DNA of 64,000 nt, taken from NCBI GenBank assembly GCA_023245155.1, contig JAHFKV010000001.1, forward strand, positions 203,034-267,033, written 5' to 3'. A program made the translations under genes and the position numbers. Below, piece by piece: positions 4,956 through 50,166 of the stretch. Positions within the stretch are counted from its first letter, which is position 1; every line of letters begins with the position of its first letter. A model generated the notes under the pieces. That model did no database searches, had not been told where the DNA came from, and saw nothing but the letters and a program-made list of their open reading frames with translations. The DNA is from Candidatus Staskawiczbacteria bacterium. GTDB lineage: Bacteria > Patescibacteriota > Minisyncoccia > Minisyncoccales > Staskawiczbacteraceae.

Positions 4956-4999
4956 AGCTATAGTTCGCTCATTCTTGCCCTAACCAAGGAGGTTTTGCT

Positions 5000-5452: not shown

Positions 5453-5464
5453 GTTCAGTGTTGG

Positions 5465-5495: not shown

Positions 5496-5522
5496 GTGGA
5501 AATTCTGTGTTAAATTGAGAAT

Positions 5523-6728: not shown

Positions 6729-6742
6729 TATATACTTTCGCT

Positions 6743-7009
6743 ATGTCAAAAAACGATACCATTCGAAAATCAGATAAGAAATTTATCCGCCTGGAAAAAG
6801 CCCGTATCCGCCGGCAGTTTTTTGATTTGAAAAAGCGCCAAGAGATGATTAATGAACTCTATAAAAGATTTATCAAAACGGATGCACAGCCGGTAATTAC
6901 CAAGGCAGAACAACCTAAGAAGGTGGAAAAACCCATCGGCCGTAGCCTGAAGGCTAAGCCTACGGGCGAGGCAAAAGCAAAACCTAAAAAAGTAGTAGCT
7001 AAAAAATAA
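6743..7009 (+). CDS. Small basic hypothetical protein (88 aa)
   Basis: ORF with a Lys-rich tail (KAKPTGEAKAKPKKVVAKK). No family recognised. Confidence 0.45.
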   Translation: MSKNDTIRKSDKKFIRLEKARIRRQFFDLKKRQEMINELYKRFIKTDAQPVITKAEQPKKVEKPIGRSLKAKPTGEAKAKPKKVVAKK

Positions 7010-7111
7010 TCGCATGAAACGCAACACCACCAAGCATAATGCCAGAATCAACAAGCGCTGGCGAAAATCACGGAGTAAGAAATATAAAAGCATCCAGTCA
7101 TAAATTGATTG

Positions 7112-7139
7112 CTGCCCGTTTGAAAGCGGGCAGTTTTTT
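7112..7139 (+). terminator. Intrinsic terminator
   Basis: CTGCCCG / CGGGCAG stem with an 8-nt loop, followed by TTTTTT. Confidence 0.7.
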
Positions 7140-7153
7140 GTTATAATAAATCC

Positions 7154-7417
7154 ATGAAACCAAAAAAAGTTAGCAAACCAGCGGGAATCGTCACTCATTA
7201 TTTTGACAAAATAAAAGTGGGTGTAATTAAGTTGGCCGTGCCCCTGAAAGAAGGGGATGAAATCAGGATTATGGGAGGAGAGAATACAGATTTTAACCAA
7301 ACGGTAAAATCTATGCAAGTGGACCATGAGCTGGTCAAAAAGGCTGCTAAGGGTAAAAGCATTGGTCTGAAGGTGAAAGAAAGAGTACGTGACGGATATA
7401 AGGTGTATAAAGTCTGA
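7154..7417 (+). CDS. Small beta-barrel protein resembling EF-Tu domain 2 (translation-factor-like)
   Basis: 87 aa. GIVTHYFDKIKVGVIKL...GDEIRI.G...F.Q.V.SMQVDH..V..A..G..IGLKV pattern typical of stand-alone EF-Tu-D2-like proteins. Confidence 0.55.
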   Translation: MKPKKVSKPAGIVTHYFDKIKVGVIKLAVPLKEGDEIRIMGGENTDFNQTVKSMQVDHELVKKAAKGKSIGLKVKERVRDGYKVYKV

Positions 7418-7429
7418 AATTGTAAAGAG

Positions 7430-7458
7430 TTGACATACCAGAAGTCCCACACTAGAAT
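7430..7458 (+). promoter_or_regulatory. Sigma70-like promoter upstream of greA
   Basis: TTGACA (7430-7435), 17 nt, TAGAAT (7453-7458), 20 nt before the ATG at 7478. Confidence 0.5.
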
Positions 7459-7477
7459 GAGCTATTAATAAAAAACT

Positions 7478-7945
7478 ATGGAAGAAAAAATTTACCATAT
7501 TACCAAAGAAAAATTGGCTCAGGTAAAAAAAGAACACGAAGCTTTGGTAGCCGTCGAGCATAGTGGTGCTGTTGAGCATGAGGCGCCTAAAATGGTTGAG
7601 TCAGACGACTTGAACCCTGAATTTGTCAGTTTCCAGGACGAGGTTGGTTCTATGCGAGCTAGGATTGACGAATTGGAAGATATTTTAAAAAAACACCAAT
7701 TAATTAAAAAGCCGCCCAAGGAGAGGCAAGTGTTTGTGGATTTGGGAGCTAAAGTGAAGATAGAAGCCGATGGCAAGAAGAGTGAATTTATGATTGTGGG
7801 AACCCTGGAGGCCCATCCGGAGTTAGGGAAAATCAGTAACGAGTCACCCGTGGGAGCAGCCTTGTTGGGGCATAAAATTGGAGACGAGGTGGTGCATGAA
7901 AAAACCAAGTATAAAATAAAAAGCATTAAGTACGAGATTAACTAA
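7478..7945 (+). CDS. greA: Transcription elongation factor GreA-like
   Basis: 155 aa. N-terminal coiled-coil region plus the C-terminal Gre domain (VDLGAKVKIE....EFMIVG..EA.P..GKISNESPVGAALLGHKIGDEV). Confidence 0.8.
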   Translation: MEEKIYHITKEKLAQVKKEHEALVAVEHSGAVEHEAPKMVESDDLNPEFVSFQDEVGSMRARIDELEDILKKHQLIKKPPKERQVFVDLGAKVKIEADGKKSEFMIVGTLEAHPELGKISNESPVGAALLGHKIGDEVVHEKTKYKIKSIKYEIN

Positions 7946-7997
7946 ATGTACGTTTCAAGAGGTGTCCTGCTGGGCGCCTTTTGTGATACAATAAAAT

Positions 7998-11340: not shown

Positions 11341-11563
11341 TGTGGTGCGCAGGATTCCGCGCGGGAAGACTTTAACCTACAAGGAGGTCGCATTAAAAAT
11401 GGGCATGCCTAATGCGGCGCGTGCTGTCGGAAACACATTAAATAAAAATCGTAGCAAGGATGTGCCCTGCCATAGAGTTATTAGAAGTGATGGCAAAATA
11501 GGAGGATATTATTGGGGCGCAGCCGCTAAAATTGAAATCCTAAAAAAAGAAGGAACTATATGA
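11309..11563 (+). CDS. Minimal O6-alkylguanine-DNA alkyltransferase, MGMT C-terminal domain only
   Basis: 84 aa from the internal ATG. FQEKVY..VRRIPRGKTLTYKEVA, active-site PCHRV retained. The longer listed ORF (from 11237) overlaps the NUDIX gene. Confidence 0.8.
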   Translation: MTSSFQEKVYSVVRRIPRGKTLTYKEVALKMGMPNAARAVGNTLNKNRSKDVPCHRVIRSDGKIGGYYWGAAAKIEILKKEGTI

Positions 11564-11635
11564 TCTTTAGATAAGCTAAGCTCGTGTAAAGTTTTTTGGC
11601 GTGGTACTATGAACGAATAAAATTTATTTTTAAAA

Positions 11636-14031: not shown

Positions 14032-14039
14032 TTTTTTTG

Positions 14040-14393
14040 TGGAGATGCCGGCGATGAAGCCGGGTCCAGAAGTTGTTTTAAAATAATTCTACAAATGTAT
14101 CCTGTTTTTTTGTTCGGACGGCAAATAAGGAACAGGAAAAATTTTTGCCATCGTAATCCCTTTAAGGTTCGATTATTCCCAAGGGAAGAGAATAATCTAT
14201 CCTGATAATATAACACCGCTAGCTACCTATCAGGAGTGGATAGTAGCGATGCCAGTTAAGCGAAAGCTAAAACTGGTTGCTGCTTATTAAAGCTAAATAA
14301 GTTTGCAATTATGGTTTTCTAGAAGTTTTACCAGGTTCTAGAATACTGGATTTGCTTATTTTAAAAGGAAAATCTGTCGAAACAGTCATCCCC
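14040..14393 (-). ncRNA. ssrA: tmRNA (SsrA)
   Basis: The minus-strand 5' end GGGGATGACTGTTTCGACAG matches the tmRNA consensus. The 3' end is GGACCCGGCTTCATCGCCGGCATCTCCA (T-arm plus acceptor). The 7-bp acceptor GGGGATG/CATCTCC includes the G3:U wobble. Tag ORF 14306-14256 reads GCA AAC ... GCT TAA, giving ANLFSFNKQQPVLAFA*. The gene is adjacent to smpB. Confidence 0.85.
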
Positions 14394-14847: not shown

Positions 14848-14956
14848 TAGATAATACTACATTTATTTTTTTCCTAAGTAAATGATTGATTATTCTATAT
14901 AAACATGTATATTTAAATAAAATTTCATTAAGCTGTTCTTTCGGAGGGATCATCTC

Positions 14957-15277
14957 GTGTTTCGAATCATGATTGTCAAAGTTCCGCGTGGCGAGGCAGA
15001 CGAAAAAATTCGCAAAGCCTGGCTTTGGATGACACTTCCTTGCACTGGCACCACTTCTTCGGCTTCCGGTGCATTGTCGGGAAAACCAGTTGACCATGGA
15101 GTTCTGGGCTACAAAGTTCCGCAAGTTGCTGCCCTTGAGCTGCTAGCGGAACAGGATTCGGCAGCAGCTCTGTGGTGGAACCAGCATGGCTACCCAAAAC
15201 CTGGGCATGTGTTTGTCTTCTATGAGAACGAGGTTATTGTCTTGGGATCGGATACGGCACATGAATCATGGGGATAG
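14957..15277 (+). CDS. Hypothetical protein, 106 aa, GC-rich cassette 2
   Basis: GTG start 8 nt after GGAGGG (14943-14948). Hand-counted GC is 165/321 = 51%. Has its own terminator. No named family recognised. Confidence 0.6.
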   Translation: MFRIMIVKVPRGEADEKIRKAWLWMTLPCTGTTSSASGALSGKPVDHGVLGYKVPQVAALELLAEQDSAAALWWNQHGYPKPGHVFVFYENEVIVLGSDTAHESWG

Positions 15278-15308
15278 CATAGATAATGGTCGCACGACCG
15301 AGCAAAAG

Positions 15309-15338
15309 GTCGCACGTCTTCGGATGTGCGACTTTTTT
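15309..15338 (+). terminator. Intrinsic terminator of cassette 2
   Basis: GTCGCACGTC-TTCG-GATGTGCGAC (10-bp stem with one G:U pair, tetraloop), followed by TTTTTT. Confidence 0.75.
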
Positions 15339-22494: not shown

Positions 22495-23108
22495 TGGCTG
22501 TAAAGTATGCCACCGAGGCGTTCGTGTTTAATAAAGAAAACAACATGGAAGCTGACCGGATATTTTCTGTGTTCACCAAAGAATTCGGCCGGCTGGAGGT
22601 TTCCGGCAAAGCCATCCGCAAGATTGATTCAAAACTGCGCGGAGGAATAGATCTTTTTTCTTTTTGCGAGATTGAATTTATCCAGGGTAAGAGTAAAAAA
22701 ACGTTGACTGATGTCTTCCCCCGTCAACGTTTTGTGCATATTGCGCAGGACCCGGAAAAATATGCGATTGCTCGGCGCATATGCCAATTGGTTCAAGCTT
22801 GCATTCATGGCCAAGAAAAAGATGAACGCATTTTAGATTTATTGGTGGACGTGTTTTCCAAGCTGAATGCAGGCAAAGCCCGAAAGTTGATATACTACTA
22901 TTTTTTTTGGAATTTCATTGCTTTATTAGGCTATGAGCCGGAAATAAAAAGCATGGAAATCTCAGAAGAAGTGGCAATCGTATTAGCATTAATCATGAAA
23001 AAGGATTGGGTTGCTTTAGATGCATTAATCATTTCGGTTGCTACCCAAAAAGTTTTCCAAGAAGTTTCAGAAAAATATTATTCCCGTGTTATGGAGTCGC
23101 ATGCTTAA
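22494..23108 (+). CDS. recO: DNA repair protein RecO
   Basis: 204 aa. N-terminal OB-fold pattern (EAFVFNKEN..EADRIFSVFTKEFGRLEVSGKAIRK..SKLRGG.DLF). Confidence 0.85.
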   Translation: MAVKYATEAFVFNKENNMEADRIFSVFTKEFGRLEVSGKAIRKIDSKLRGGIDLFSFCEIEFIQGKSKKTLTDVFPRQRFVHIAQDPEKYAIARRICQLVQACIHGQEKDERILDLLVDVFSKLNAGKARKLIYYYFFWNFIALLGYEPEIKSMEISEEVAIVLALIMKKDWVALDALIISVATQKVFQEVSEKYYSRVMESHA

Positions 23109-26495: not shown

Positions 26496-27767
26496 ATGTT
26501 CAAAAAATCTGCCTTAAAAAATGGCTTGCGCATTCTGACGGTGCCGATGAAAAATGCTAACAGTGTGACGGTTTTGCTGTTGGTTGGCACGGGCTCAAAG
26601 TATGAAACTAAAGACATTAACGGCATCTCGCACTTTTTAGAGCACATGTTTTTTAAGGGAACGCAAAAACGACCAAATACGTTAGCCATTTCCGAAACGT
26701 TAGATAAAATTGGTGGTCAGTATAATGCTTTTACTTCCAAAGAGGTGACGGGCTTTTGGGCCAAAGTAGATAAAAAGCATACCGATGTGGCTTTAGATTG
26801 GATCTCGGACATTTTCTTAAATTCTAAATTTGATGCCGAAGAATTGGAACGCGAAAAAGGCGTGGTGACCGAAGAATTAAACATGTATTTGGATACGCCG
26901 ACCAGTTATGTTTCCGAATTATTTGAGGAATTGTTGTACGGCGACACGCCGGCAGGCTGGAGGATTGTGGGGGAAAAAGAAACTATTGCCGCTTATAATC
27001 GTGAAAAATTAATGGATTATTTTCAGAGCCATTATTCAAACGACAACACCGTTTTGTGCGTGGCAGGGGATATTGACCAAGCTGACATTGAAAAAAAGCT
27101 CGCAGAATATTTTGCTGATATCCAGATTAGAAAAGCGGCTGAAAAATTGCCAGTCAAAGAATCACAATCAAAACCGGGTATCTTTTTGCACTACAAAAAA
27201 ACTGACCAGACGCATTTTTGTTTGGGTGTGCGAGCCTATGACATGTATGATAAACGGCGCTTTGCCCTGCAGCTGATTTCGGTTGTACTGGGCGGGAACA
27301 TGAGTTCGCGTTTGTTTATTTCCGTACGCGAGAGAAATGGCTTGGGCTATTACATTCACACTAGTGTTGACTCCGCTACCGATACGGGATATTTAGTGAC
27401 GCAGTCAGGAATTAAAAACGATAGTTTGGAAAAAGCCATTGGATTAGTTTTGAAAGAATACAAAGATATCCGGGATAATGGTGTTTCGCCTGATGAACTG
27501 CAAAAAGCCAAAGATTTTGTTCGGGGCAGTGCATCGCTTTCATTAGATTCTTCAGATGCCCTGGCTTCATTTTACACTACCCAAGAAGTGATGCGCCAAG
27601 AAGTCATGACTCCCGAGCAAAAGTTAGAAATGATTGATAACGTTACGGCCGATGATATAAAGAAGGTAGCCAAGGATATTTTTGTAAATGCCAAGTTGAA
27701 TCTATCGGTCATCGGGCCGTTTGAGGAGAAGGAAAAGGAAAAACTTGAGAAGTTATTAAGCTTATAA
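26496..27767 (+). CDS. M16 family zinc peptidase (pitrilysin-like)
   Basis: 423 aa. Inverted zinc motif HFLEHMFFKG and a downstream E. Confidence 0.9.
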   Translation: MFKKSALKNGLRILTVPMKNANSVTVLLLVGTGSKYETKDINGISHFLEHMFFKGTQKRPNTLAISETLDKIGGQYNAFTSKEVTGFWAKVDKKHTDVALDWISDIFLNSKFDAEELEREKGVVTEELNMYLDTPTSYVSELFEELLYGDTPAGWRIVGEKETIAAYNREKLMDYFQSHYSNDNTVLCVAGDIDQADIEKKLAEYFADIQIRKAAEKLPVKESQSKPGIFLHYKKTDQTHFCLGVRAYDMYDKRRFALQLISVVLGGNMSSRLFISVRERNGLGYYIHTSVDSATDTGYLVTQSGIKNDSLEKAIGLVLKEYKDIRDNGVSPDELQKAKDFVRGSASLSLDSSDALASFYTTQEVMRQEVMTPEQKLEMIDNVTADDIKKVAKDIFVNAKLNLSVIGPFEEKEKEKLEKLLSL

Positions 27768-27768
27768 C

Positions 27769-28791
27769 ATGGACCAAACCTTAGACATATCCTGGTCAGC
27801 CATTATAAAGGTACTCATTGCCGGTTTTCTTTTGTATTTCCTTTTTTTGTCACGCGAAATTGTGATTTGGCTCTTTTTTGCGCTAGTCATTTCTCTACTG
27901 CTAGAGCCAGCGATTAATTTTTTGGAAAAGTTCCGGGTGCCTAAAATATTAGCTGCCATTGCGGTATATCTGGCTATTTTTGCCGTGATTGGTCTGATGA
28001 TATTTTTTACTGCCCCTATTTTTATTTTTGAACTTAACCAGCTGTCCCAAAATATCCCTGCCTATTTTGAAGCGGTAAACCCGGTGTTAAAAAGTTTTGG
28101 TTTTGAAATTGCTAAAAATTTCCAAGATTTTACCGCCGGTTTAATGAGCGCCTTACAAGAGAGTTCGGGTAGCATTTTTAAAGCTATTACCATCTTTTTT
28201 GGTGGGCTATTTTCCACCCTATTTATTTTTTCCCTAGCTTTTTTTATTTCTTTAGAAGACCGAGGCGTAGAACGGGTATTAGCCCTATTGGCTCCAAAAC
28301 GGTATGAACACCACATTTTATACGTGTTTGAGCGAGCTCAAACCAAAGTGGCCGGATGGTTCGGAGCGCGGATCTTGGCTTGCTTGTTCGTGGGCATCAC
28401 TTCTTTCATCGTATTCTTCTTGCTTGGGGTAAAATATCCGTTTATCTTAGCGCTTATTTCCGGAGTGCTTAATTTTATACCGTTCATCGGGCCCACCATC
28501 ACATTAGTTTTGGCAGTCCTCTTTGTTTTTTCTTCCGGTTCTTGGTTGCTGGCCCTGTATGTTGCCATTGCCTTGCTGATAATCCAAGAAATAGAAAACA
28601 AAGCGTTAACACCCTTGCTGATGAAAAAGTTTATTGATCTGCCACCAGTACTGGTACTGGTTTCATTACTGGTGGGCGGCGTACTTTTTGGATTTTTGGG
28701 AACTATTTTTTCCGTTCCCGTATTTGGCATTATTTACGAAATCTCAAAAGAATTTTTCATAAAGCGCAAGGAAGAATCGGCCAATGCCTAA
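27769..28791 (+). CDS. AI-2E family transporter (PerM-like permease)
   Basis: 340 aa, multi-pass. NFIPFIGP motif. Confidence 0.85.
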   Translation: MDQTLDISWSAIIKVLIAGFLLYFLFLSREIVIWLFFALVISLLLEPAINFLEKFRVPKILAAIAVYLAIFAVIGLMIFFTAPIFIFELNQLSQNIPAYFEAVNPVLKSFGFEIAKNFQDFTAGLMSALQESSGSIFKAITIFFGGLFSTLFIFSLAFFISLEDRGVERVLALLAPKRYEHHILYVFERAQTKVAGWFGARILACLFVGITSFIVFFLLGVKYPFILALISGVLNFIPFIGPTITLVLAVLFVFSSGSWLLALYVAIALLIIQEIENKALTPLLMKKFIDLPPVLVLVSLLVGGVLFGFLGTIFSVPVFGIIYEISKEFFIKRKEESANA

Positions 28792-30214
28792 ACCCTTTTA
28801 TATTACTACCACGTTGCCCTATGTAAATGCTGATCCGCATATCGGTTTTGCCATGGAGCTTATTCAGGCCGATGTCATTGCACGCTGCAAGCGGCAGCAA
28901 GGTTTTGAAGTATTTTTTAATATGGGGTCTGATGAGCATGGCATAAAAATATTGCGTAAAGCAGAGGAAACTAGTATGGAACCAAAAGCTTACTGTGATA
29001 TTTACGCGGCCAAATTTAACGATTTAAAAAAGGCCTTGAATGTCAGCTACGATAATTTTATCCGCACCACCGATGAGCATCACATTAAAGCTGCCCAAGA
29101 ATTTTGGCTTCGATGCCAAAAAAATGGGGATATTTATAAAAAAAATTACAAAGTAAAATATTGTGTTGGTTGTGAGTTGGAAAAAACAGATTCGGAATTA
29201 GAAAATGGCAAATGCGCAATCCATCCAAATTTACCGATAGAGCTTATTGAAGAAGAAAACTACTTTTTCAAATATTCTAAGTATCAGCAACCTTTGCTGG
29301 ATTTTTACGAAAAGAACCCAAATTTTGTAGTGCCACATTCTCGTCTGAATGAAATTACGGAATTTACCAAAAAGGGGCTTGAAGATTTTAGTATTTCCCG
29401 CTTGAAGGACAAAATGCCCTGGGGGGTGCCGGTTCCCAATGATGAAAAACACGTGATGTATGTTTGGTTTGATGCGCTAGTAGGATACATTTCCGCTTTG
29501 GGCTGGCCGGAAAATGAAAAACAATTTAAAACATTTTGGCCGGGTATGCAGGTGGCGGGCAAGGATAATTTGCGCCAGCAATCTAGCATGTGGCAGGCAA
29601 TGTTGTTGTCGGCCGATTTGCCCAATTCAAAGCAAATCTTCATCCATGGATTTATTACCGTAGGCGGGCAAAAAATGTCTAAGTCGCTGGGAAATGTGAT
29701 TGATCCGTTTGAATTGGTGAAAAAATATGGAGTGGATGCGGTAAGATATTATTTATTAAGAGAAATTACGCCTACTGAGGATGGAGATTTTACGTACGAG
29801 AAGTTTGAGCAAAGATATAATTCGGATTTGGCTGGGGGAATTGGAAACTTATTGGCGCGGACGGTGACGCTGGCTAATAATCCAAAATTTATTAAACAGG
29901 AGCCTGGAAAGATGGTTAAAGAAATCGTTGAGGGCTCAAGAGCACGAGTTGAAGAAAAAATCGAAGCATTTAGGTTCAATGAAGCTTTGGAATGGATCTG
30001 GGTTATTATCAGCAGTTGTGATCAATTCATGAGTCAGGATAAGCCTTGGGAGTGGAAGGAAGCCGCTTCGCAAACGATTTGCGACGCACTCTTTGCATTA
30101 GAGAGCATTTCTGAACTACTTTTACCATTCATGCCCGAAACCGCAGAAAAAATAGAAACAACCATTAAAACTAAAAAATCGGTGCAATTGTTTCCGCGTC
30201 TATTGACGCAATAG
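28784..30214 (+). CDS. metG: Methionine--tRNA ligase
   Basis: 476 aa. PYVNADPHIGF (HIGH-type), KMSKS, and a zinc knuckle CVGCE...C. Confidence 0.95.
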   Translation: MPKPFYITTTLPYVNADPHIGFAMELIQADVIARCKRQQGFEVFFNMGSDEHGIKILRKAEETSMEPKAYCDIYAAKFNDLKKALNVSYDNFIRTTDEHHIKAAQEFWLRCQKNGDIYKKNYKVKYCVGCELEKTDSELENGKCAIHPNLPIELIEEENYFFKYSKYQQPLLDFYEKNPNFVVPHSRLNEITEFTKKGLEDFSISRLKDKMPWGVPVPNDEKHVMYVWFDALVGYISALGWPENEKQFKTFWPGMQVAGKDNLRQQSSMWQAMLLSADLPNSKQIFIHGFITVGGQKMSKSLGNVIDPFELVKKYGVDAVRYYLLREITPTEDGDFTYEKFEQRYNSDLAGGIGNLLARTVTLANNPKFIKQEPGKMVKEIVEGSRARVEEKIEAFRFNEALEWIWVIISSCDQFMSQDKPWEWKEAASQTICDALFALESISELLLPFMPETAEKIETTIKTKKSVQLFPRLLTQ

Positions 30215-30231
30215 TAACTCTTTGCTATAGT
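30203..30231 (+). promoter_or_regulatory. Sigma70-like promoter of the csrA cassette (cassette 3)
   Basis: TTGACG (30203-30208, inside the last metG codons), 17 nt, TATAGT (30226-30231). A 68-nt leader follows, with GGA motifs at 30265 and in SD AAGGAGG 30284-30290. Confidence 0.5.
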
Positions 30232-30299
30232 ACAGGTAGCGCAACTCAAATTCGGGCTCACGGGGGAGCTCACACACCTTTTGAAGGAGGTACTTAGAC

Positions 30300-30503
30300 A
30301 TGTTGGTTCTGTCCCGTAAACTGGGCGAGAAGATTTACATCAACGACAATATCTGTATCACCGTCGTTGACATCGAACGCGGCAAAATTCGCTTGGGCAT
30401 TGAAGCCCCGCCCGATGTGCCGGTCTTTCGGCAGGAGCTCATGGCCGACAAGCACGACGCGCCCCCGCCGGCCGACAAACCGGTCGCGAGTGCCAAGGCC
30501 TAG
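30300..30503 (+). CDS. csrA: Carbon storage regulator CsrA/RsmA family RNA-binding protein, GC-rich cassette 3
   Basis: 67 aa. MLVLSRKLGEKIYI...ITVV.I.RGKIRLGIEAP.DVPV.R.EL is the CsrA signature, followed by a Pro/Ala-rich tail. Hand-counted GC is 119/204 = 58%. Confidence 0.85.
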   Translation: MLVLSRKLGEKIYINDNICITVVDIERGKIRLGIEAPPDVPVFRQELMADKHDAPPPADKPVASAKA

Positions 30504-30528
30504 AGGGCCGATGGCTCAACAAAACACG

Positions 30529-30563
30529 AAGCTGGGTGATCAGGATTGATTGCCCAGCTTTTT
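30529..30563 (+). terminator. Intrinsic terminator of cassette 3
   Basis: AAGCTGGG ... CCCAGCTT stem (8 bp, 16-nt loop) running into TTTTT. Confidence 0.65.
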
Positions 30564-30580
30564 ACATGTATAATTTTCAT

Positions 30581-31339
30581 ATGATAATTGATACCCATAG
30601 TCACCTGCAATTTGACGCGTTTGACGCTGACCGCGACCAAGTCATCAAAAGAATGCTAGCAGAAAATATTCAGTGTATTAATGTTGGCTGTTCTTTGGAT
30701 TCCTCTAAAAAAGCGGTTGCATTAGCCGAAAAACACGAAGGTTTTTATGCTGCGATTGGCTTGCACCCCACCGATGCTGGCGAGCCGTTTGATGTGGCGC
30801 AATATCGAGCATTGGCACAATCAAAAAAAGTAGTGGCGATCGGAGAAATCGGTTTGGATTTTTTCCATAAACCTTACGACGAACAAAAACAAAAAGATAT
30901 TTTTTTACAGCAGTTAGCTCTGGCCGAAGAACTAAATTTGCCAGTTATCATTCATTGCCGCGCCGCGCATGAGCAAATGATAGAAATATTGAGAAATCAA
31001 AAGTTGGCGCGCCTGCCGGCAGGCAGGCAGGGCGTTATTCATTGTTTTACAGGAACTTTAGAGCAAGCTCAAAAGTATGTTGAGCTTGGATTTTACCTTG
31101 GGATTGGCGGAATTATTTTTAAGTTTAACATTGATAAGGTTATCCAAGAAACTCCGCTGGCAAAATTATTGATAGAAACCGATTGCCCGTTTTTAACACC
31201 CGCGGGTGCGCCGGAAAAAAGAAACGAACCAATATTTATGAAATACACCATTGAAAAAATTGCCCAACTTAAAAATATCAGTCCAGAAATGGTTGCCTCT
31301 GCAACCACAGAAAACGCGAAAAAATTGTTCGGTGTATAA
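30581..31339 (+). CDS. tatD: TatD family metal-dependent hydrolase/DNase
   Basis: 252 aa from the internal ATG. MIIDTHSHL, GEIGLDF, IHCR, ETDCPFL. Confidence 0.9.
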   Translation: MIIDTHSHLQFDAFDADRDQVIKRMLAENIQCINVGCSLDSSKKAVALAEKHEGFYAAIGLHPTDAGEPFDVAQYRALAQSKKVVAIGEIGLDFFHKPYDEQKQKDIFLQQLALAEELNLPVIIHCRAAHEQMIEILRNQKLARLPAGRQGVIHCFTGTLEQAQKYVELGFYLGIGGIIFKFNIDKVIQETPLAKLLIETDCPFLTPAGAPEKRNEPIFMKYTIEKIAQLKNISPEMVASATTENAKKLFGV

Positions 31340-31345
31340 CTTTTG

Positions 31346-31374
31346 TTGCTAAAATAATGGGACAGGTGTAAAGT
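31346..31374 (+). promoter_or_regulatory. Candidate promoter of cassette 4
   Basis: TTGCTA (31346-31351), 17 nt, TAAAGT (31369-31374). SD AGGAGG lies at 31418-31423. Confidence 0.35.
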
Positions 31375-31430
31375 ATAGCAATTTGCGTCGCACCTTGTTT
31401 CAGCACCTTGTTCTAAGAGGAGGACGTCCC

Positions 31431-31901
31431 ATGCTGCTGTCCATGTTTTGCGTAATCGTGTTCGCAGCGGCCGAGTCGGCCACTACCGGCAACGGAATGA
31501 GCCCGGATTTGGGCAAAAAAGAGGCGCCTCCGAAAATCAGGCCGGTTGAGCCTGACACCGACCTCACGGGCTACTACACTTGCACCGGCGAAGAGGCTGG
31601 CGGCAAGAAGTACTCCGGCGTCGTTAGCCTCGTCAAGAAAAACGAAGTTTACTTAATTAGCTGGGTAGTCGGTGGCGGCTCGACGTTCTCGGGTATCGCC
31701 ATTCGACAAGGGAATAACCTCGCCGCTAGTTGGTCAGTAAACACCGAAAAGGGCCTGGTGCGCGGCGTCAATCTTTACCGCATCGAGGCGGCCAAGGATG
31801 GTCCGCGCCTAGTCGGCCGTTGGGCATCGGTTCCCGGGACCGGAGTTCAGCAAACAGAGACGTTATCATTCTTGAAAAAGATGGAGGTCGAGAAAGACTA
31901 A
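31431..31901 (+). CDS. Secreted hypothetical protein, 156 aa, GC-rich cassette 4
   Basis: ATG 7 nt after AGGAGG. Signal-peptide-like MLLSMFCVIVFAAAES. A beta-rich mature part (YTCTGEEAGGKKYSGVV...W.V..G....G.A.R.GN.LA.SW). Hand-counted GC is 265/471 = 56%. Confidence 0.6.
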   Translation: MLLSMFCVIVFAAAESATTGNGMSPDLGKKEAPPKIRPVEPDTDLTGYYTCTGEEAGGKKYSGVVSLVKKNEVYLISWVVGGGSTFSGIAIRQGNNLAASWSVNTEKGLVRGVNLYRIEAAKDGPRLVGRWASVPGTGVQQTETLSFLKKMEVEKD

Positions 31902-31922
31902 AGCGAGCGGTTCGTCTCGCGC

Positions 31923-31955
31923 TCCCGCCAGGCAGCTCTGGCGGGACTTTTTTTT
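31923..31955 (+). terminator. Intrinsic terminator of cassette 4
   Basis: TCCCGCCAG-GCAGCT-CTGGCGGGA (9-bp stem), then C and 8 T residues. Confidence 0.85.
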
Positions 31956-31987
31956 GCATATAAAGTGTGATAGCATAATTTAAAATA

Positions 31988-34387
31988 ATGATTAAATATA
32001 ATCCAGCTAAAATTGAAAAAAAGTGGCAAAAGAGGTGGTTTACTTCAGGCGTTTTTGAAGCGAAAAACTCTTCAAAAAAGCCAAAGTATTACCTGCTTGA
32101 CGAATTCCCGTATCCTTCGGGAGATGGGCTCCATGTGGGACATTGCCGGCCTTACATTGGTTTAGATGTGATTGCTAGGAAAAGGCGGATGCAGGGTTTC
32201 AATGTGCTTTACCCCATGGGCTGGGATGCTTTTGGCCTGCCTACGGAGAATTACGCGATTAAAAAAGGCGTTCATCCTGCCATAGTAACCAAAAAAAATA
32301 CTGCCAATTTTAAAAAGCAGATGAAAAATTTAGGGCTGTCTTTTGATTGGAGCCGGGAAATAAATACTACTGACCCAAAATATTATACATGGACGCAATG
32401 GATTTTTATCAAGTTGTTTGAAGCGGGAATGGCCTACAAAGATAAAATTAACATTAATTGGTGCCCAAAAGATAAAACGGGTTTGGCGAATGAAGAAGTG
32501 ATTAATGGTTGCTGTGAGCGCTGCGGCACTAAGGTTGAAAAGCGAGAAAAATCCCAGTGGCTGATTAAAATTACCAAATACGCTGATCGGTTAATTGAAG
32601 ATTTATCAAATGTGGATTATCCGGCGCGCGTTAAGGATCAACAAATAAATTGGATTGGCAGGAGCGAGGGAATCAACATTGATTATCAAATTGAAAATAG
32701 TAAAAAAGTTATTTCTGTTTTTACAACAAGACCCGACACTAATTTTGGCGCCACGTTTTTAGTGGTTGCCCCTGATGGAAAGTTTGTAAAAGAAAATGTG
32801 GAAGAGTTTCCTGAAAAAGAAAAAGTGAGAGCCTATGTGAAAGAATCGTTGGCCAAACCGGAAATAGATAGAACTGCAGAGGGCAAGAAAAAAACCGGGG
32901 TACCAACGGGCTGGTATGCTATCAACAACTTAAATGGCAAAAAAATGCCTATTTATGTGGGGGATTTTGTGCTGGGGCAGTTTGGAACCGGCTGCGTGGT
33001 TGGTGTGCCGGGGCACGATGTGCGCGACTTTGAATTCGCTAAAGCAATGGGGCTGGAAATTATCAGGGTGGTAGTGGGTCCCGATGGCGACAAGTCAGAA
33101 ATTACTGACGTAAAGCAAGTCCAGGAAGAAAAGGGAACCATGATAAACAGCGGATTTTTAGATGGCAGAGACATTCATGAAGCTACAAAGGTTATTATGG
33201 ATCATATAGTTGAGAAAGGTTGGGGTAAAAAGATTGTAAATTATAAACTGCGCGATTGGGTTTTTTCACGTCAGCATTATTGGGGCGAGCCGATTCCGAT
33301 GATTTATTGCGCGGCTTGTGGTTGGGTTACAGTTCCAGAAAAAGATTTACCGGTGGCATTGCCAAAAGTTACAAAATATCAGCCCACTGATGATGGCGAG
33401 TCACCCTTGAGTGCGATCGAAAAGTTTGTAAACACCAAATGTCCAAAATGTGGCGGCGCGGCAAAAAGAGAAACTGATACCATGCCAAATTGGGCAGGCT
33501 CTAATTGGTATTTTTTGCGCTACACCGATCCGAAGAATAATAAAAGTTTAGCTGATGAAAAGGTGCTAAAATATTGGATGCCCGTGGATTGGTACAACGG
33601 CGGTATGGAACATACTACGTTACATTTATTGTATTCGCGATTTATCTTTAAATTTTTGTGGGATATTGGGGCGTTACCAAAAGAAATCGGTAATGAACCT
33701 TATAAAAAGAGAACCTCCCATGGTATTGTGCTGGCTGAAGGCGGCGTGAAAATGTCAAAAAGCAAGGGAAATGTAATTAATCCGGATGATGTGGTTAAAG
33801 AATATGGCGCTGATACGTTGCGAGTGTACGAAATGTTTATGGGACCTTTCGAGCAAATGATTCCATGGGATACCAAGGGCATTGTTGGTGCACGCAGGTT
33901 TTTGGAAAAGATTTATATACTGGCGAATAAAAAAGTTGCTACAAAAAGCAGCCAGGATTTGGCATTAGCTTTAAACAAAACTATCAAAAAAGTATCGGAG
34001 GATATTGAGCTGATGAAGTTTAATACGGCAATAAGTGCCATGATGAGTTTTGTGAATGAATGGTATTCTTCAGAAACGGGATTAGACAAGAAAGACCTGC
34101 AAAAGTTTTTGACAATTTTATCGCCTTTTGCGCCGCATTTGGCTGCCGAATTAGGATTGAAAGAAAGAACATGGCCAACGTATGCAGAAATTCAGGAAGC
34201 TACGGTGATGATGATTGTTTCTGTGAATGGCAAAGTGCGCGATAAAATGGAAATGAAAAGTGGATTAGATCAAAGCCAAGTTGAAGGCTTGGTTTTACAT
34301 ACGCCAAAAATCAAACCATGGCTGGAAGGGAAACAGGTTAAGAAAATCATTTTCGTGCTAAATAAACTGATAAATATAGTCGTATGA
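31988..34387 (+). CDS. leuS: Leucine--tRNA ligase
   Basis: 799 aa. PYPSGDGLHVGH (HIGH), KMSKSKGN, CP1 editing domain. Confidence 0.95.
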   Translation: MIKYNPAKIEKKWQKRWFTSGVFEAKNSSKKPKYYLLDEFPYPSGDGLHVGHCRPYIGLDVIARKRRMQGFNVLYPMGWDAFGLPTENYAIKKGVHPAIVTKKNTANFKKQMKNLGLSFDWSREINTTDPKYYTWTQWIFIKLFEAGMAYKDKININWCPKDKTGLANEEVINGCCERCGTKVEKREKSQWLIKITKYADRLIEDLSNVDYPARVKDQQINWIGRSEGINIDYQIENSKKVISVFTTRPDTNFGATFLVVAPDGKFVKENVEEFPEKEKVRAYVKESLAKPEIDRTAEGKKKTGVPTGWYAINNLNGKKMPIYVGDFVLGQFGTGCVVGVPGHDVRDFEFAKAMGLEIIRVVVGPDGDKSEITDVKQVQEEKGTMINSGFLDGRDIHEATKVIMDHIVEKGWGKKIVNYKLRDWVFSRQHYWGEPIPMIYCAACGWVTVPEKDLPVALPKVTKYQPTDDGESPLSAIEKFVNTKCPKCGGAAKRETDTMPNWAGSNWYFLRYTDPKNNKSLADEKVLKYWMPVDWYNGGMEHTTLHLLYSRFIFKFLWDIGALPKEIGNEPYKKRTSHGIVLAEGGVKMSKSKGNVINPDDVVKEYGADTLRVYEMFMGPFEQMIPWDTKGIVGARRFLEKIYILANKKVATKSSQDLALALNKTIKKVSEDIELMKFNTAISAMMSFVNEWYSSETGLDKKDLQKFLTILSPFAPHLAAELGLKERTWPTYAEIQEATVMMIVSVNGKVRDKMEMKSGLDQSQVEGLVLHTPKIKPWLEGKQVKKIIFVLNKLINIVV

Positions 34388-35127
34388 TTAAAAAAGTGGT
34401 GGTTTCGGCGGCGGGGCATGGCACTCGCATGCTGGAACTTTCAAAAGACAAGCCAAAGCATTTAATTGAAGTGGAACAAAAGCCGTTTTTGGCGTACTTG
34501 TTGGACAATGTTTTTACTGCCGGATACCAAGAGGTTATTTTAGTCGTAGGCTACAAACAAGAAGCCATGCAAGCATTTGTGGCCAGCTACACTTTTGGTG
34601 GTGCGCCGCAAAACATTTCCCTGGTTAGTCAATTTGAAATATTGGGGCCAAAAGAGCAGGGTGACTATGGTACCGCTTGCCCGCTCAAATGCGTTAAAGA
34701 ACAGGTGAAGGGCGAAGATTTTATTTCTTTGGTGGGCGATAATTTTTATACGGTGGAAGATTTAAAAGCCATGGATAAAGATGATGCATTTTGCTATGTT
34801 GCCGGGCGAGTGGAGGAACATCCCGAAAAGTTTGGGGTGTTAATAGAAAATGGTCAATTTTTGAAAGAAATTATTGAAAAACCTAAAACGTTTGTGGGGA
34901 ATTTGGTAAATACCAGTTTGTATAAATTTACGCCGGATGTGTTTGAAAAATTGCCGTTAATTGGCAAATCGGTGCGTGGTGAATATGAAATTACGGATGT
35001 TATCTCGCTTTTGGCTAAAGATGGTAAAGTGAAAATAGTAACAACGAAAAATTACTGGATGGATTTTGGCCGGCCGGAGGATATTGAAAAATTCCAAGGT
35101 TATTTGAAAGATGAAAAATCTAAATAA
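34384..35127 (+). CDS. Sugar-phosphate nucleotidyltransferase
   Basis: 247 aa. N-terminal AAGHGTRM (GxGTR) and K.KPK.LI.V signature. Confidence 0.8.
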   Translation: MIKKVVVSAAGHGTRMLELSKDKPKHLIEVEQKPFLAYLLDNVFTAGYQEVILVVGYKQEAMQAFVASYTFGGAPQNISLVSQFEILGPKEQGDYGTACPLKCVKEQVKGEDFISLVGDNFYTVEDLKAMDKDDAFCYVAGRVEEHPEKFGVLIENGQFLKEIIEKPKTFVGNLVNTSLYKFTPDVFEKLPLIGKSVRGEYEITDVISLLAKDGKVKIVTTKNYWMDFGRPEDIEKFQGYLKDEKSK

Positions 35128-35653
35128 GGCAGTAGCTGTTTTAAAAAGGGGCGGAATAATAATTTGCCCAACAGACACAGTGTATGGATTTTTGGCGGCT
35201 GCTAGTAATAAAAAAGCAGTTGAAAAAATTTACAAAATAAAAAAGAGACCAAAGCCACTGTCAGTTTTTGTAAAAAATCTAACTACTGCAAAAAAACTAG
35301 CTTTCGTTAACGAAAAAGCCCAAAAACTTTTGCTTAATCCAAAAGTAACAGTTGTCCTAAAAAGAAAATCGGGCATCAAGCTTTATGGCATGGCAAAAAA
35401 CAATACTGTTGCTATAAGAATTCCAAATTACAGGTTTCTAAATGATTTGCTAAAAAAAATAAACCGGCCGCTGGTACAAACTTCAGCTAATTTGAGTGGT
35501 CAGGAGCCCTTGAAAACTGGGGAGCAAATAATGGCCACCTTTGGAAAATCCAAGCTTGTAGGGCTAATTGTAACCTCTAGTAAGCCCCTGGGAGGTAAAT
35601 CTTCGAAAGTCATTGATTTAGCTGGTAAAAATGTCAAAATAATAAGAAAGTAA
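35111..35653 (+). CDS. tsaC: L-threonylcarbamoyladenylate synthase (YrdC/TsaC domain)
   Basis: 180 aa. GGIIICPTDTVYGF, IYKIKKRP..KPLSV, TSANLSG. Confidence 0.85.
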   Translation: MKNLNKAVAVLKRGGIIICPTDTVYGFLAAASNKKAVEKIYKIKKRPKPLSVFVKNLTTAKKLAFVNEKAQKLLLNPKVTVVLKRKSGIKLYGMAKNNTVAIRIPNYRFLNDLLKKINRPLVQTSANLSGQEPLKTGEQIMATFGKSKLVGLIVTSSKPLGGKSSKVIDLAGKNVKIIRK

Positions 35654-35657
35654 ACGT

Positions 35658-36905
35658 ATGCCAAAACTCTCAAAACAAGATACGCAAATTGCAAAATTGA
35701 TAGACTTGGAAGCGAAGCGGCAAAAGGAGTCGCTACAGATGATTGCTTCGGAAAATCATTGCTCGCCGGCGGTGCGGGAAGCTTTGGGCAGTGTTTTGAC
35801 GGATAAATATGCTGAAGGATATCCGGGCAAAAGATATTATGGCGGAAATCAATATATTGATATGGTGGAAAATATTTGTATTGATAGGGCAAAAAAGTTA
35901 TTTGGTGTGGAGCATGTGAATGTGCAGCCGCATTCGGGTTCGCCAGCCAACGCTGCAGTGTATGTGGCAACCTGCTTGCCTGGGGAGACGATTATGGGAT
36001 TGGCTTTGCCCATGGGTGGGCATTTAACACATGGCACCAAAATCAGTTTTGGCGGAAAGTTTTTTAATGCGGTGCAATATGCGGTGGATGAAAAAACCCA
36101 TTTAATTAATTATGATACGCTGGCAAAAATGGTTTTGGAACATAAGCCAAAACTTATTTGGGTGGGTGCGACGGCGTACCCACGATTTTTTGATTGGAAG
36201 AAGCTAGGCGAAATTGCGGATTCTGTTGGCGCCTATTTAGCCGCTGATATTGCGCACATTGCTGGCTTGGTTGCAGGAGGCGCACATCCAAGTCCTGTGC
36301 CCTACGTACACATTGTAACCACTACTACGCACAAAACATTGCGCGGTCCGCGCGGTGGTATGATTATGGTAACAGCCAAAGGTTTAAAGAAAGATGCAGA
36401 ATTGCCCAAGAAAATTGATAAAGCCGTTTTTCCAGGGCTTCAAGGCGGGCCACATGAAAATGCCATTGCCGCCATTGCTGTTTGCTTGAAAGAAGCTTCG
36501 GCGCCAGCGTTTAAAACATATGCTAAGCAAATTGTAAAAAATGCTAAGACGTTGGCGGAGGAGTTAAAAAAATATGGGTTTATATTAATGAGTGGCGGTA
36601 CGGATAATCATTTAATGGTGATCGATTTGAGAAATAAAAACATCACGGGAGCCGAGGCACAGGATTTGCTGGAAAGCGCGGGGATAAGTGCCAACAGAAA
36701 TAGTATTCCGTATGACCCGGCTGGCCCATTTAAGCCATCGGGAATTCGCTTGGGAACTCCAGCCATTACCACTCGCGGTATGAAAGAAAAAGAAATGAAA
36801 CTGATTGCGGGATGGATTGATGAAGTTATTTCAAATCCTTCTAAGGCTAAAAAAATAGCGCAGGAAGTTAAGAAATTATGCAAGAAATTCCCACTTCCAA
36901 AATAG
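35658..36905 (+). CDS. glyA: Serine hydroxymethyltransferase
   Basis: 415 aa. LQMIASENH, GYPGKRYYGG, and the PLP site TTTTHKTLRGPRGG. Confidence 0.95.
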   Translation: MPKLSKQDTQIAKLIDLEAKRQKESLQMIASENHCSPAVREALGSVLTDKYAEGYPGKRYYGGNQYIDMVENICIDRAKKLFGVEHVNVQPHSGSPANAAVYVATCLPGETIMGLALPMGGHLTHGTKISFGGKFFNAVQYAVDEKTHLINYDTLAKMVLEHKPKLIWVGATAYPRFFDWKKLGEIADSVGAYLAADIAHIAGLVAGGAHPSPVPYVHIVTTTTHKTLRGPRGGMIMVTAKGLKKDAELPKKIDKAVFPGLQGGPHENAIAAIAVCLKEASAPAFKTYAKQIVKNAKTLAEELKKYGFILMSGGTDNHLMVIDLRNKNITGAEAQDLLESAGISANRNSIPYDPAGPFKPSGIRLGTPAITTRGMKEKEMKLIAGWIDEVISNPSKAKKIAQEVKKLCKKFPLPK

Positions 36906-38029: not shown

Positions 38030-38572
38030 ATGTATAGTATTTACCAAATCATAGGAGTTTTTTGGCTTTTACTTCCAGCTGGTGTTTCCAATATGATGCC
38101 AGTTTTTGTGAAAGGGGTTGACGTTCTTAATTATCCCATTGATCATGGCCTGAAATTTGGTGGTAAAGAACTGCTGGGGCCCAATAAAACATGGCGGGGA
38201 CTTTTCTTCGGGACTATTGCGGGCATTATAGTAGTATATATCCAAGTTTTTCTGTATCCTTATGTCCAAAAATATGCTCTGTTGGATTATTCTGCTATCA
38301 GTCCTTTAGCCATAGGATTTTTACTGGGGTTCGGGGCTTTAGCTGGTGATAGTGTGAAAAGTTTTTTTAAAAGGCGGACGGGCATTCAACCTGGCAAAAC
38401 ATGGTGGGTTTTTGATCAAATAGACTGGATCGTGGGGGCATTTGTTTTTCTTGCACTCTATCATGTGTTCGGATTACACGTGTATGTTACCGGAATAATT
38501 CTGATGGGAATTTTGCACCCGGCAATAAATATAATTGGATATGTGTTAGGAATAAAAAAGAATGTTTTTTAA
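38030..38572 (+). CDS. CDP-archaeol synthase (CarS, DUF46) family CTP-transferase homologue
   Basis: 180 aa. WLLLPAGVSN..PV, PID.G..F.GKELLGPNKTWRG, GALAGDSVKSFFKRR.G, DQIDW, HPAINIIGY. These motifs are co-linear with archaeal CarS (A. fulgidus sequence recalled from memory). Confidence 0.7.
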   Translation: MYSIYQIIGVFWLLLPAGVSNMMPVFVKGVDVLNYPIDHGLKFGGKELLGPNKTWRGLFFGTIAGIIVVYIQVFLYPYVQKYALLDYSAISPLAIGFLLGFGALAGDSVKSFFKRRTGIQPGKTWWVFDQIDWIVGAFVFLALYHVFGLHVYVTGIILMGILHPAINIIGYVLGIKKNVF

Positions 38573-49424: not shown

Positions 49425-49450
49425 GCAAAAGCAATAAAAGAGAGTAGTAT
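49423..49450 (+). promoter_or_regulatory. Candidate promoter of cassette 5
   Basis: TTGCAA (49423-49428), 16 nt, TAGTAT (49445-49450). SD AAGGAGG lies at 49476-49482. Confidence 0.35.
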
Positions 49451-49488
49451 GATAAGCATTCACTACAACCAAATAAAGGAGGTGAAAA

Positions 49489-50133
49489 GTGAAAACAGTT
49501 GTTCTTTCTGGCTTTCGTCGCTTTGGCGACTACCTTGCCAATTCAACGGCAATTGTAGCGCGGCAGCTAGATCAGAAGGTCCTTGGGGGCGTTCGGGTTG
49601 AGTCAATCGTATTCAGCGCGGCTATTCCCAGAATCAATCGGGGCAAGCAGCTGGTTGGTTTTGCCAGACGCGTTGATGCAAGCGCAATCATTTCCCTGGG
49701 AATGGCTTCGGACAAATCGGGTTTGTGTGTTGAGCACGTGGCTCAAAACAGGATTGACGGAAAGTACGTTCCGACTTCAATGAAAGGCGCCCGCATTGAT
49801 GTGGCCCAACCCTACGGCCATGAGCTTGAGCTGGATCTTGCGCCCTGGAGGTTTGAAAAATTAGCACAGTCTTGTATGACTGCGGGCGTGCCAATTATGA
49901 GGCGTTCGCGCAACGCAGGAGGTTTTTGCTGTAACCACTTAATGTGGCAGCTGCATCAAGCCCAGCTCGGTGTGCCAGCTAAAAAAAGAATTTCGGCCAT
50001 CTTCCTGCACGTTCCGTGTTCCTTGGCATCCGTTGCTGACCTGGATGCTTTCACTCAAGCTGGGAAGGTAACCATGGAGCCAAGTGAAATCATCAAGGGG
50101 TTGGCGTTGCTTATAAAGCATGCGTCAATCTGA
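49489..50133 (+). CDS. Peptidase C15 (pyroglutamyl-peptidase I-like) cysteine peptidase, GC-rich cassette 5
   Basis: 214 aa. GTG start 6 nt after AAGGAGG. MKTVVLSGF..FG N-terminus. Putative Glu-Cys-His triad contexts are retained (LCVEHVAQN, AGGFCCNH, IFLHVP). Hand-counted GC is 333/645 = 52%. Confidence 0.7.
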   Translation: MKTVVLSGFRRFGDYLANSTAIVARQLDQKVLGGVRVESIVFSAAIPRINRGKQLVGFARRVDASAIISLGMASDKSGLCVEHVAQNRIDGKYVPTSMKGARIDVAQPYGHELELDLAPWRFEKLAQSCMTAGVPIMRRSRNAGGFCCNHLMWQLHQAQLGVPAKKRISAIFLHVPCSLASVADLDAFTQAGKVTMEPSEIIKGLALLIKHASI

Positions 50134-50135
50134 AA

Positions 50136-50166
50136 ACCGCCACGTCGCCCTGTGTGCGGTTTTTTT
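50136..50166 (+). terminator. Intrinsic terminator of cassette 5
   Basis: Imperfect hairpin ACCGCCAC...GTGTGCGGT followed by a T-run (50160-50166). Confidence 0.55.

Follow-up and report, generated by a model that had tools for sequence, protein, structure and literature searches.

A csrA Gene of Apparent Planctomycete Ancestry in a Conserved metG–tatD Slot of Candidatus Staskawiczbacteria

Introduction

CsrA is understood almost wholly as a competitor of the ribosome for leaders that contain a Shine–Dalgarno (SD) sequence. Dual-site binding of CsrA uses a pair of GGA motifs, of which one lies at a hairpin and the other within the SD sequence, and a leader with two GGA motifs, one of them in the SD, is reportedly the layout behind the autoregulation of csrA in E. 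coli. In Bacillus, FliW uses the region of the C-terminal extension of CsrA. Besides, copies of CsrA or RsmA are found on mobile elements, as illustrated by the CsrA paralogs borne on integrative conjugative elements of Legionella and by RsmQ from a Pseudomonas plasmid. Here, we describe a csrA gene at 30300–30503 of a 64-kb stretch of contig JAHFKV010000001.1 of a Candidatus Staskawiczbacteria genome. This whole stretch is called the window below. Its backbone is Staskawiczbacteria-like and belongs to the Candidate Phyla Radiation (CPR, Patescibacteria), the best matches of its methionyl-tRNA synthetase (MetRS) being proteins of 65–77% identity from metagenome-assembled genomes of that name.

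On balance, it is probable that this is a functional csrA in a conserved CPR slot, that it is of Planctomycete ancestry, that it reached its present state by deletion from a tandem pair and that it represses its own translation. This explanation is carried by the family identity of the protein, the anatomy of the transcription unit, the conservation of the slot, the allele families with their affinity to Planctomycetes and the dichotomy in SD usage, to which the tandem deletion, the autorepression and a regulon are added as proposals. A first-pass annotation had read the gene differently, namely as an orphan CsrA imported into a genome whose own genes lack SD sites.

The case is of interest beyond this genome. 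A clade with essentially no SD sequences in its housekeeping genes retains csrA, which is reportedly highly expressed and in every case has a structured leader and an SD-like box of canonical form. The clade thereby constitutes a natural test of the role of CsrA where SD occlusion cannot be the general mode of action, and of whether the SD boxes that remain serve ribosomes or act as protein operators.

Identity of the CsrA Protein

The 67-amino acid protein quoted in the first-pass annotation is the product of the open reading frame (ORF) 30300–30503 on the forward strand. Residues 1–48 constitute the CsrA core, and the Pro/Ala-rich tail claimed for the protein is found at residues 49–67. The Pfam CsrA model PF02599 matches residues 1–49 over model positions 1–49 of 53 with 80 bits, the gathering score being 27, which bears out the proposed identity. 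The equivalog level of NCBIfam is missed for TIGR00202 (66.1 versus 70.1 bits) and for NF002469 (61.2 versus 73); these cut-offs are narrowly missed because the tail differs and only the core of residues 1–48 aligns.

Across the same residues, the protein aligns without gaps to the solved structures of RsmE (2jpp) and CsrA (7yr6). In this alignment, L2, L4, R6, V40, V42, R44 and E46 are retained, and K7 and L47 are conservative changes. In E. coli numbering, the conserved residues that bind RNA are L2, L4, R6/R7, V40, V42, R44 and I47. By homology, the window csrA is a genuine gene of the CsrA/RsmA family. Its product would adopt the interlaced β-strand homodimer fold, as judged from the gapless alignment to the solved CsrA and RsmE chains, and is most likely a GGA-binding dimer. 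Purifying selection is illustrated by the comparison with the gene of the same allele family in L098, one of the related genomes treated below: the proteins are 85% identical, while identity at third codon positions is just 55%. The protein itself is an ordinary new member of the family; the interest sits in its genomic context.

The csrA Transcription Unit

As read from the sequence, csrA is a complete one-gene transcription unit, with a strong predicted promoter, a structured SD-bearing leader, a coding sequence (CDS) and a strong terminator. These elements and the promoter of the next gene, tatD, are located as follows.

30203–30231, forward strand: csrA promoter, with −35 box TTGACG at 30203–30208, a 17-nt spacer and extended −10 box TGC-TATAGT at 30223–30231 (score 10/12)
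30238–30299, forward strand: predicted 5′ leader of the csrA mRNA, ~62 nt, its start placed from the −10 position
30254–30271, forward strand: leader hairpin 1, GGGCUC-ACGGGG-GAGCUC, in which GGA 30265–30267 straddles the border of loop and stem (minimum-free-energy fold)
30276–30291, forward strand: leader hairpin 2, ACCUUU-UGAA-GGAGGU, in which a U-tract pairs with the SD (minimum-free-energy fold)
30300–30503, forward strand: csrA CDS, 67 amino acids, 'family 1' allele, assigned from Pfam, the alignment to solved structures and the nucleotide identity to genes in Planctomycete context
30528–30563, forward strand: csrA intrinsic terminator, a 15-bp stem (30528–30542/30547–30561) with GGAU tetraloop (30543–30546) and a U-run (from folding)
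30546–30583, forward strand: tatD promoter, with −35 box TTGATT at 30546–30551 and −10 box TATAAT at 30569–30574, overlapping the csrA terminator (score 10/12)

The −35 box of csrA lies within the final codons of metG, the stop codon of which is at 30212–30214, as the first-pass annotation had stated. The GGA motifs at 30265 and in the SD (30284–30290) are likewise exactly where it had placed them, and all its coordinates check out. Its leader of 68 nt was counted from the end of the −10 box; counted from the predicted start near 30238, the length becomes ~62 nt. A promoter 12-mer, TTGACGCAATAG, is identical in L011, and the architecture TTGAC-N17-TGCTATA is found in L005–L008, L011, L098 and L100 as well, this promoter being common to the six closest csrA copies.

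The SD box AAGGAGG (30284–30290) contains a GGA at 30286–30288 and ends 9 nt before the ATG. In the minimum-free-energy folds, the SD GGA is at least partly paired in 18 of 19 related leaders; in L014, which is the exception, a second GGA at −11 is partly paired. The z-score of hairpin 1 by itself is not significant. In L006, L007 and L008, its counterpart has a wholly different yet complementary stem following a shared UUCG, and the 3′ half of the window leader resembles the leaders of these three loci as well as that of the first csrA gene in L098. The terminator folds at −22.6 kcal/mol (z = −6.2), and none of 200 shuffles folds as well. Downstream, the ATG of tatD (30581) lies only 6 nt past the −10 box, and the tatD mRNA is therefore predicted to be leaderless. 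The layout ATTGATT/TATAAT upstream of tatD is common to the window and L008.

Conservation of the metG–tatD Slot

In 18 further related genomes, metG and tatD likewise flank csrA. These comprise 14 GTDB species genomes that were fetched via their MetRS (L005–L009, L011–L015, L020, L025, L031 and L040) and the further carriers L098/L099, L100, L101 and L102. In all 15 loci examined in full, the window included, csrA is richer in GC than its genome (0.39–0.58 versus 0.31–0.43), an SD-type box ends ~7–10 nt before the csrA ATG and a terminator is found at the end. In L004, L010, L019, L024, L032 and L077, metG abuts tatD, and in still other relatives the space between the two is taken by unrelated genes. 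What occupies this slot is thus variable.

In two more distant Parcubacteria, L022 (7236–7987) and L035 (11353–12207), the gap between metG and tatD holds small AT-rich, SD-led ORFs and no csrA. These ORFs are Lys/Glu-rich and encode 63 and 90 amino acids. Small accessory genes in general seem to have a hot spot at the metG–tatD junction.

Judging by its isolate name alone (nzgw419), L008 presumably comes from the same New Zealand groundwater sampling as a published study of ultra-small prokaryotes. That study counts csrA among the genes with high expression in these organisms (PMC9938205). CsrA belongs to the established regulators of this lineage, and a native function is to be expected, since the slot is conserved, promoter and leader are shared, tandem copies exist and high expression has been reported.

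Ancestry and Allele Families

The closest homologs of the window CsrA are found on contigs with a GC content of 0.55–0.61 that share a 'UvrC-like / csrA' arrangement and of which the named members are Gemmataceae/Planctomycetes. The proteins are 78–84% identical over the full length, with the tail. At the nucleotide level, the identity to genes in Planctomycete context is 79–83%, again with the tail included, versus 56–64% to the csrA genes that the 13 GTDB relatives with a valid comparison have at this site (L031 is left out on account of an indel). Most relatives carry a second allele family ('family 2') in the slot. The CsrA of L008 is 91–93% identical to the products of Planctomycete-context genes at a 'ROK / csrA / IU_nuc_hydro' locus that bears Gemmataceae names. 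In general, these Planctomycete contexts have a GC content of 0.55–0.66, a conserved UvrC-like/csrA or ROK/csrA synteny and DUF1559/N_methyl neighbours.

In a neighbour-joining tree, which rests on 159 aligned nucleotides, the window gene, the second copies of L098 and L100 (L098b and L100b) and four genes in Planctomycete context are grouped with 100% bootstrap support, apart from the family-2 clade. Judged by identity and by this grouping, the csrA coding sequences of the slot descend from Planctomycete (Gemmataceae-like) genes and comprise two allele families. The transfer would have been from Planctomycetes to CPR bacteria, because the composition of the gene, the thousands of homologs and the conserved synteny on the Planctomycete side point that way.

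Phages were considered as a vector and rejected. Five IMG/VR contigs (L093–L097) encode a CsrA of 57–65% identity, but their GC content of 0.57–0.69 is not CPR-like. These contigs, classed as viral, look like Planctomycete phages, prophages or mis-binned DNA.

Two Gemmataceae csrA paralog families and a Gemmataceae-like cassette in the neighbourhood (see below) point to a sustained flow of Planctomycete genes into episymbiont-like bacteria. This gene flow is a concrete and checkable lead to the hosts of these CPR bacteria.

Tandem Copies in Related Genomes

In L098/L099 and in L100, a family-2 csrA is followed by a family-1 csrA between metG and tatD, the two lying ~40 nt apart (L098 2073–2516; L100 2474–2927). 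The MetRS proteins of L098 and L100 are 76–78% identical to that of the window. The spacer between the tandem genes measures 37–39 nt and has two GGA motifs (CCAGGAWUC and AAAGGA). A further observation on L098 is that its LeuRS of 939 amino acids (3965–6784) has a NUDIX domain hit inside it in the precomputed Pfam list.

The slot of the window holds family 1 only. The leader in front of it (...CACACCTTTTGAAGGAGGT...) resembles the leader of the first gene in L098 (...CACTTTTCCCCGAAGGAGGT...) and is unlike the short spacer upstream of the family-1 gene in the tandem pairs. Because tandem relatives exist and the family-1 gene of the window sits behind a leader like that of a first gene, the simplest and most economical history is that the window probably lost the first copy of a tandem pair. 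This loss may have occurred by recombination between the near-identical ATGTTGGT... 5′ ends of the two genes.

Autorepression and Regulatory Partners

In the proposed mechanism, a CsrA dimer would bind both GGA motifs of its own leader, the one at 30265 at the hairpin and the one at 30286 in the SD, which are 21 nt apart. Binding at these motifs would repress the translation of csrA. We give this autorepression about an even chance.

GGA is enriched in the 19 CPR csrA leaders, with 47 occurrences versus 19 expected. Of these leaders, 16 have at least two GGA motifs, of which one belongs to the SD and another lies ~16–37 nt upstream. When seven leaders are aligned by hand, the upstream hairpin displays compensatory changes in 5 of 7 inner-stem pairs and in one outer-stem pair. 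These compensatory pairs are seen only in the hand alignment, as the MAFFT alignment of the hairpins is out of register. A conserved leader structure, modeled in this way, is likely but not proven.

Neither of the known types of CsrA partner was encountered in the window, as the first-pass annotation had noted. Over its 64 kb, Rfam gave no hit to a CsrB/Rsm-type small RNA (sRNA), be it at the gathering score or with the limit relaxed to E ≤ 0.5. FliW (PF02623) had no hit in the ~23 window ORFs scanned, nor at csrA in related loci. A CsrB-like sRNA was also considered for three GGA-rich 'gaps' (6729–7997, 11341–11635 and 22495–23037) and rejected, as all three are coding. They contain, respectively, small proteins and GreA, an MGMT-like domain and a RecO-like ORF, and their GGA density is about as predicted from composition. 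A literature search turned up no paper that deals with CsrA in Staskawiczbacteria or with Planctomycete CsrA paralogs.

Shine–Dalgarno Usage and the GC-Rich Cassettes

To be counted as SD-led, a gene had to have GGAGG or AGGAG at −20 to −4 from its start. By this measure, none of the ~58 backbone genes in the window is SD-led, including rplT, rpmI, infC, ftsA and ftsZ. Only five genes are, and these are precisely the five ORFs with a GC content of at least 0.5 (starts at 5000, 14957, 30300, 31431 and 49489). Fisher's exact test on this split of SD against GC gives ~1e-7 (hand arithmetic). The statement that backbone genes lack SD sites can hence be upheld. Related loci are likewise poor in SD sequences, with 0–3 SD-led genes per 10–23 genes, and the SD-led GC-rich cassettes of these relatives are mostly without a Pfam match.

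With a GC content of 0.58, and 0.76 at third codon positions (GC3), csrA is the GC-richest ORF of the window, the backbone genes being at ~0.41. The earlier claim that the csrA unit is the most GC-rich stretch is thus correct for ORFs, while in 200-nt windows csrA ties with the neighbouring cassette at 31400–31599 (0.585 each). The five GC-rich genes (0.51–0.58) form single-gene cassettes that are scattered among AT-rich operons, each with a promoter-like site of its own, a strong SD, a CDS and an intrinsic terminator. The csrA cassette extends over 30203–30563; the other four are given below.

4986–5452, forward strand: cassette 1, with SD AAGGAGG at 4986–4992 and CDS 5000–5452, followed by a terminator (cassette extent 4986–5497); no family match
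14943–15277, forward strand: cassette 2, with SD GGAGGG at 14943–14948 and CDS 14957–15277, followed by a terminator (cassette extent 14943–15335); no family match
31350–31955, forward strand: cassette by tatD, with SD AGAGGAGG at 31416–31423, CDS 31431–31901 (156 amino acids) and terminator at 31923–31955; weak LIC10280-like match
49476–50133, forward strand: cassette 5, with SD AAGGAGGTG at 49476–49484 and CDS 49489–50133, followed by a terminator (cassette extent 49430–50165); Peptidase_C15-like

The best named homologs of the 156-amino acid protein are from Planctomycetes/Gemmataceae (64–67%), together with one Uhrbacteria protein. A homolog of this cassette lies between tatD and leuS only in the relatives with tandem csrA genes (L098 3429–3881; L100 3889–4272). 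The protein itself (31431–31901) is predicted to be secreted or lipoprotein-like. Beyond csrA, the four other cassettes would be the most obvious candidate targets of CsrA, since only they have other leaders of the GGA/SD type in the window, although this is speculation.

Approximately 9 of 58 window genes, tatD and leuS among them, have a TATAAT-like hexamer that ends 5–8 nt before the start codon (30569–30583, 31973–31990 and seven other gene starts). This suggests that leaderless mRNAs may be one route of translation start in this SD-less genome; the signal is weak because the upstream regions are AT-rich.

Two further genes of the window were noted aside from csrA. A transfer-messenger RNA gene at 14037–14393 on the reverse strand is found by Rfam (112.7 bits) and is not reported by ARAGORN. 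At 38030–38572, a membrane protein of 180 amino acids matches the CarS-like Pfam family (CDP-archaeol synthase family) with 107 bits; in this bacterial genome, its gene adjoins a CDP-alcohol phosphatidyltransferase gene and a PAP2 gene.

Alternative Explanations

Several observations weigh against the explanation preferred here, each in one of its parts. The transfer direction rests on composition and abundance: in the neighbour-joining tree, the Planctomycete family-1 genes nest among the CPR ones with just 60–76% support, and the topology within the families is too weak to settle the direction. With respect to the loss of a first copy, the flanks of the window and L008 are similar over a short distance only, just 1.5–2 standard deviations above shuffles. 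A clean argument that the CDS had been swapped between native flanks was dropped for this reason, and because of the weak flank identity promoter architecture and position are used as the argument instead. Moreover, window positions 26496–36905 compare with L008 as a mosaic, with identities of 90% for M16, 87% for LeuRS, 89% for NTP-transferase and 86% for SHMT against 65% for AI-2E, 75% for MetRS and 71% for TatD. Given this mosaic, the whole block 27769–31900, csrA included, may have passed between CPR lineages by recombination instead of a local deletion having taken place. As for autorepression, most leader folds are no more stable than those of shuffles (z from +1.1 to −2.5), and RNAalifold on the MAFFT alignment of nine leaders yields just a 5-pair helix without energy support. 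In seven relatives, the loop of the upstream hairpin is AAGG or AAGA instead of GGA, and the CsrA site at this place is therefore not universal. Lastly, if the 16S rRNA of this organism has no anti-SD, the 'SD' is no ribosome-binding site and the occlusion model needs rethinking.

A different history is possible, if doubtful, in which Gemmataceae alleles, acquired from a Planctomycete partner or host, convert the resident csrA again and again by virtue of their homology to it. Such overwriting would keep csrA rich in GC and yield several allele families. The GC3 of csrA is 0.54–0.76 in 16 of the 19 CPR copies (L007, L009 and L031 are lower), in genomes with a GC content of 0.31–0.45, despite third positions that are near saturation among the family-2 copies (28–53% identity). 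Ordinary amelioration has not happened in these GC-rich copies; either selection acts on their composition or Planctomycete alleles overwrite the locus time and again. Overwriting is further in line with the family-2 copy of L098, which is closer to the Planctomycete gene L089 (87% nucleotide identity, 70% at third positions) than to any CPR copy, with the presence of two different Gemmataceae paralog families, and with the second cassette 0.9 kb away that also has Gemmataceae-like best hits. However, the comparison covers only the 159 aligned nucleotides with their weakly supported within-family nodes, and a single old transfer would lead to equally star-like distances if evolution is slow in Planctomycetes and fast in CPR bacteria.

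It is unlikely, though worth weighing, that the GGAGG box is not a working ribosome-binding site, the anti-SD being lost or masked, and that it is kept as a CsrA operator or as one half of a fourU-type hairpin that sequesters the SD. In the fourU-type variant, the U-tract hairpin would respond to something other than CsrA. In about half of Parcubacteria, no anti-SD motif can be detected (PMC9297842). In the distant Parcubacteria-like relative L027, the sole fetched locus that contains a 16S 3′ end (near position 9300, forward strand), this end reads ...GGAATAAATCTTTTT / ...GGGGAACCTGTCGATGGAATAAATCTTTTT, without CCTCC. The SD-less backbone genes fit such a view, as does the U-tract 2–8 nt upstream that pairs with the box in nearly all predicted folds. 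By contrast, the spacing of the box, 7–10 nt before the ATG, is canonical in the 18 CPR csrA leaders measured and in all five cassettes, which is the expectation for a real SD, and the Planctomycete homologs also carry GAAGGAGG.

Rather improbable is an extension of both ideas, an imported, self-contained module for the control of translation that consists of CsrA and a few SD-led GC-rich cassettes derived from Gemmataceae, in a CPR lineage that has abandoned SD-led initiation and may have lost the anti-SD as well. In this module, the GGAGG box would be kept as a CsrA operator, CsrA would exert a kind of 'xenogeneic silencing' at the RNA level and csrA would be refreshed by alleles from the host. 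If this were true, genes captured from a Planctomycete host would be silenced at the RNA level.

The reading that starts from the first-pass annotation, i.e., a recent one-off import of an orphan CsrA without native targets or antagonist, perhaps functionless cargo, has become very improbable. What stands of it is the foreign composition of the GC-richest ORF, the nearest homologs in Planctomycetes (Gemmataceae-named), the backbone without SD sites and the lack of a FliW or CsrB-like RNA in the window. The one-off character does not stand, since csrA fills the same slot in the 18 other related genomes, where promoter architecture and features of the leader are conserved, the six closest promoters being alike, an SD leader and a terminator being present in 15 of 15 loci and two relatives being tandem carriers. 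Moreover, L098 and L100 have the family-1 allele too, in spite of the MetRS identity of only 76–78%, which makes this allele old and under purifying selection, and the high expression reported for csrA in such organisms speaks against functionless cargo.

An artefact of assembly or binning, in which a GC-rich foreign fragment was stitched into a CPR contig, would account for the sharp jump in composition from 0.41 to 0.58 but is refuted for practical purposes, as the window DNA with both csrA junctions is 100% identical in Logan SRR14366769 and ENA ERZ27280214 (SRR14366772 has the same gene order), the csrA −35 box overlaps the end of metG, the csrA terminator carries the tatD −35 box and the arrangement recurs in eighteen related genomes.

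Comparison with Known Csr Systems

The preferred explanation, a functional csrA of Planctomycete ancestry that would repress itself, can be set beside four described or related systems. With CsrA of E. coli and RsmA/RsmE of Pseudomonas, which are homodimers that repress translation by binding GGA, the window protein shares the Pfam family, the gapless core and the RNA-contact residues L2, L4, R6, V40, V42 and R44. The window leader moreover resembles that of E. coli csrA in having two GGA motifs, one of them in the SD. In contrast to these systems, the window CsrA has F43 in place of the usual H43, a Pro/Ala-rich tail and scores below the NCBIfam equivalog cut-offs, no sRNA of the CsrB/RsmY/RsmZ type was detected in the window, and the host has essentially no SD sequences to occlude.

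The window CsrA resembles the CsrA–FliW system of Bacillus and further flagellated bacteria, where fliW commonly lies beside csrA and flagellar genes, in the Bacillus-type start of its core, MLVLSRK, and in the C-terminal extension past it; structure 5dmb is among the structure-search matches of the window CsrA. The neighbourhood is different, since the window gene lies next to metG and tatD, with no FliW in the ORFs tested and no flagellar genes seen. The Planctomycete csrA contexts that were retrieved likewise have no FliW.

The greatest resemblance is to Gemmataceae csrA genes. Those of family 1 ('UvrC-like / csrA') are 78–84% identical to the window gene in amino acids and 79–83% in nucleotides and share both the tail and the GAAGGAGG box, while those of family 2 ('ROK / csrA / IU_nuc_hydro') correspond to the CsrA of L008 with 91–93% amino acid identity. 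They differ in the GC content of their hosts (0.55–0.66) and in their promoters and leaders, and no experimental study on them was found in the literature.

Lastly, the copies of CsrA or RsmA on mobile elements offer the parallel of a horizontally acquired paralog that could control co-acquired genes post-transcriptionally. Compared to these, the window gene has no flanking mobile-element genes; no other csrA is seen beside it, and throughout the clade its place is fixed at a single chromosomal site.

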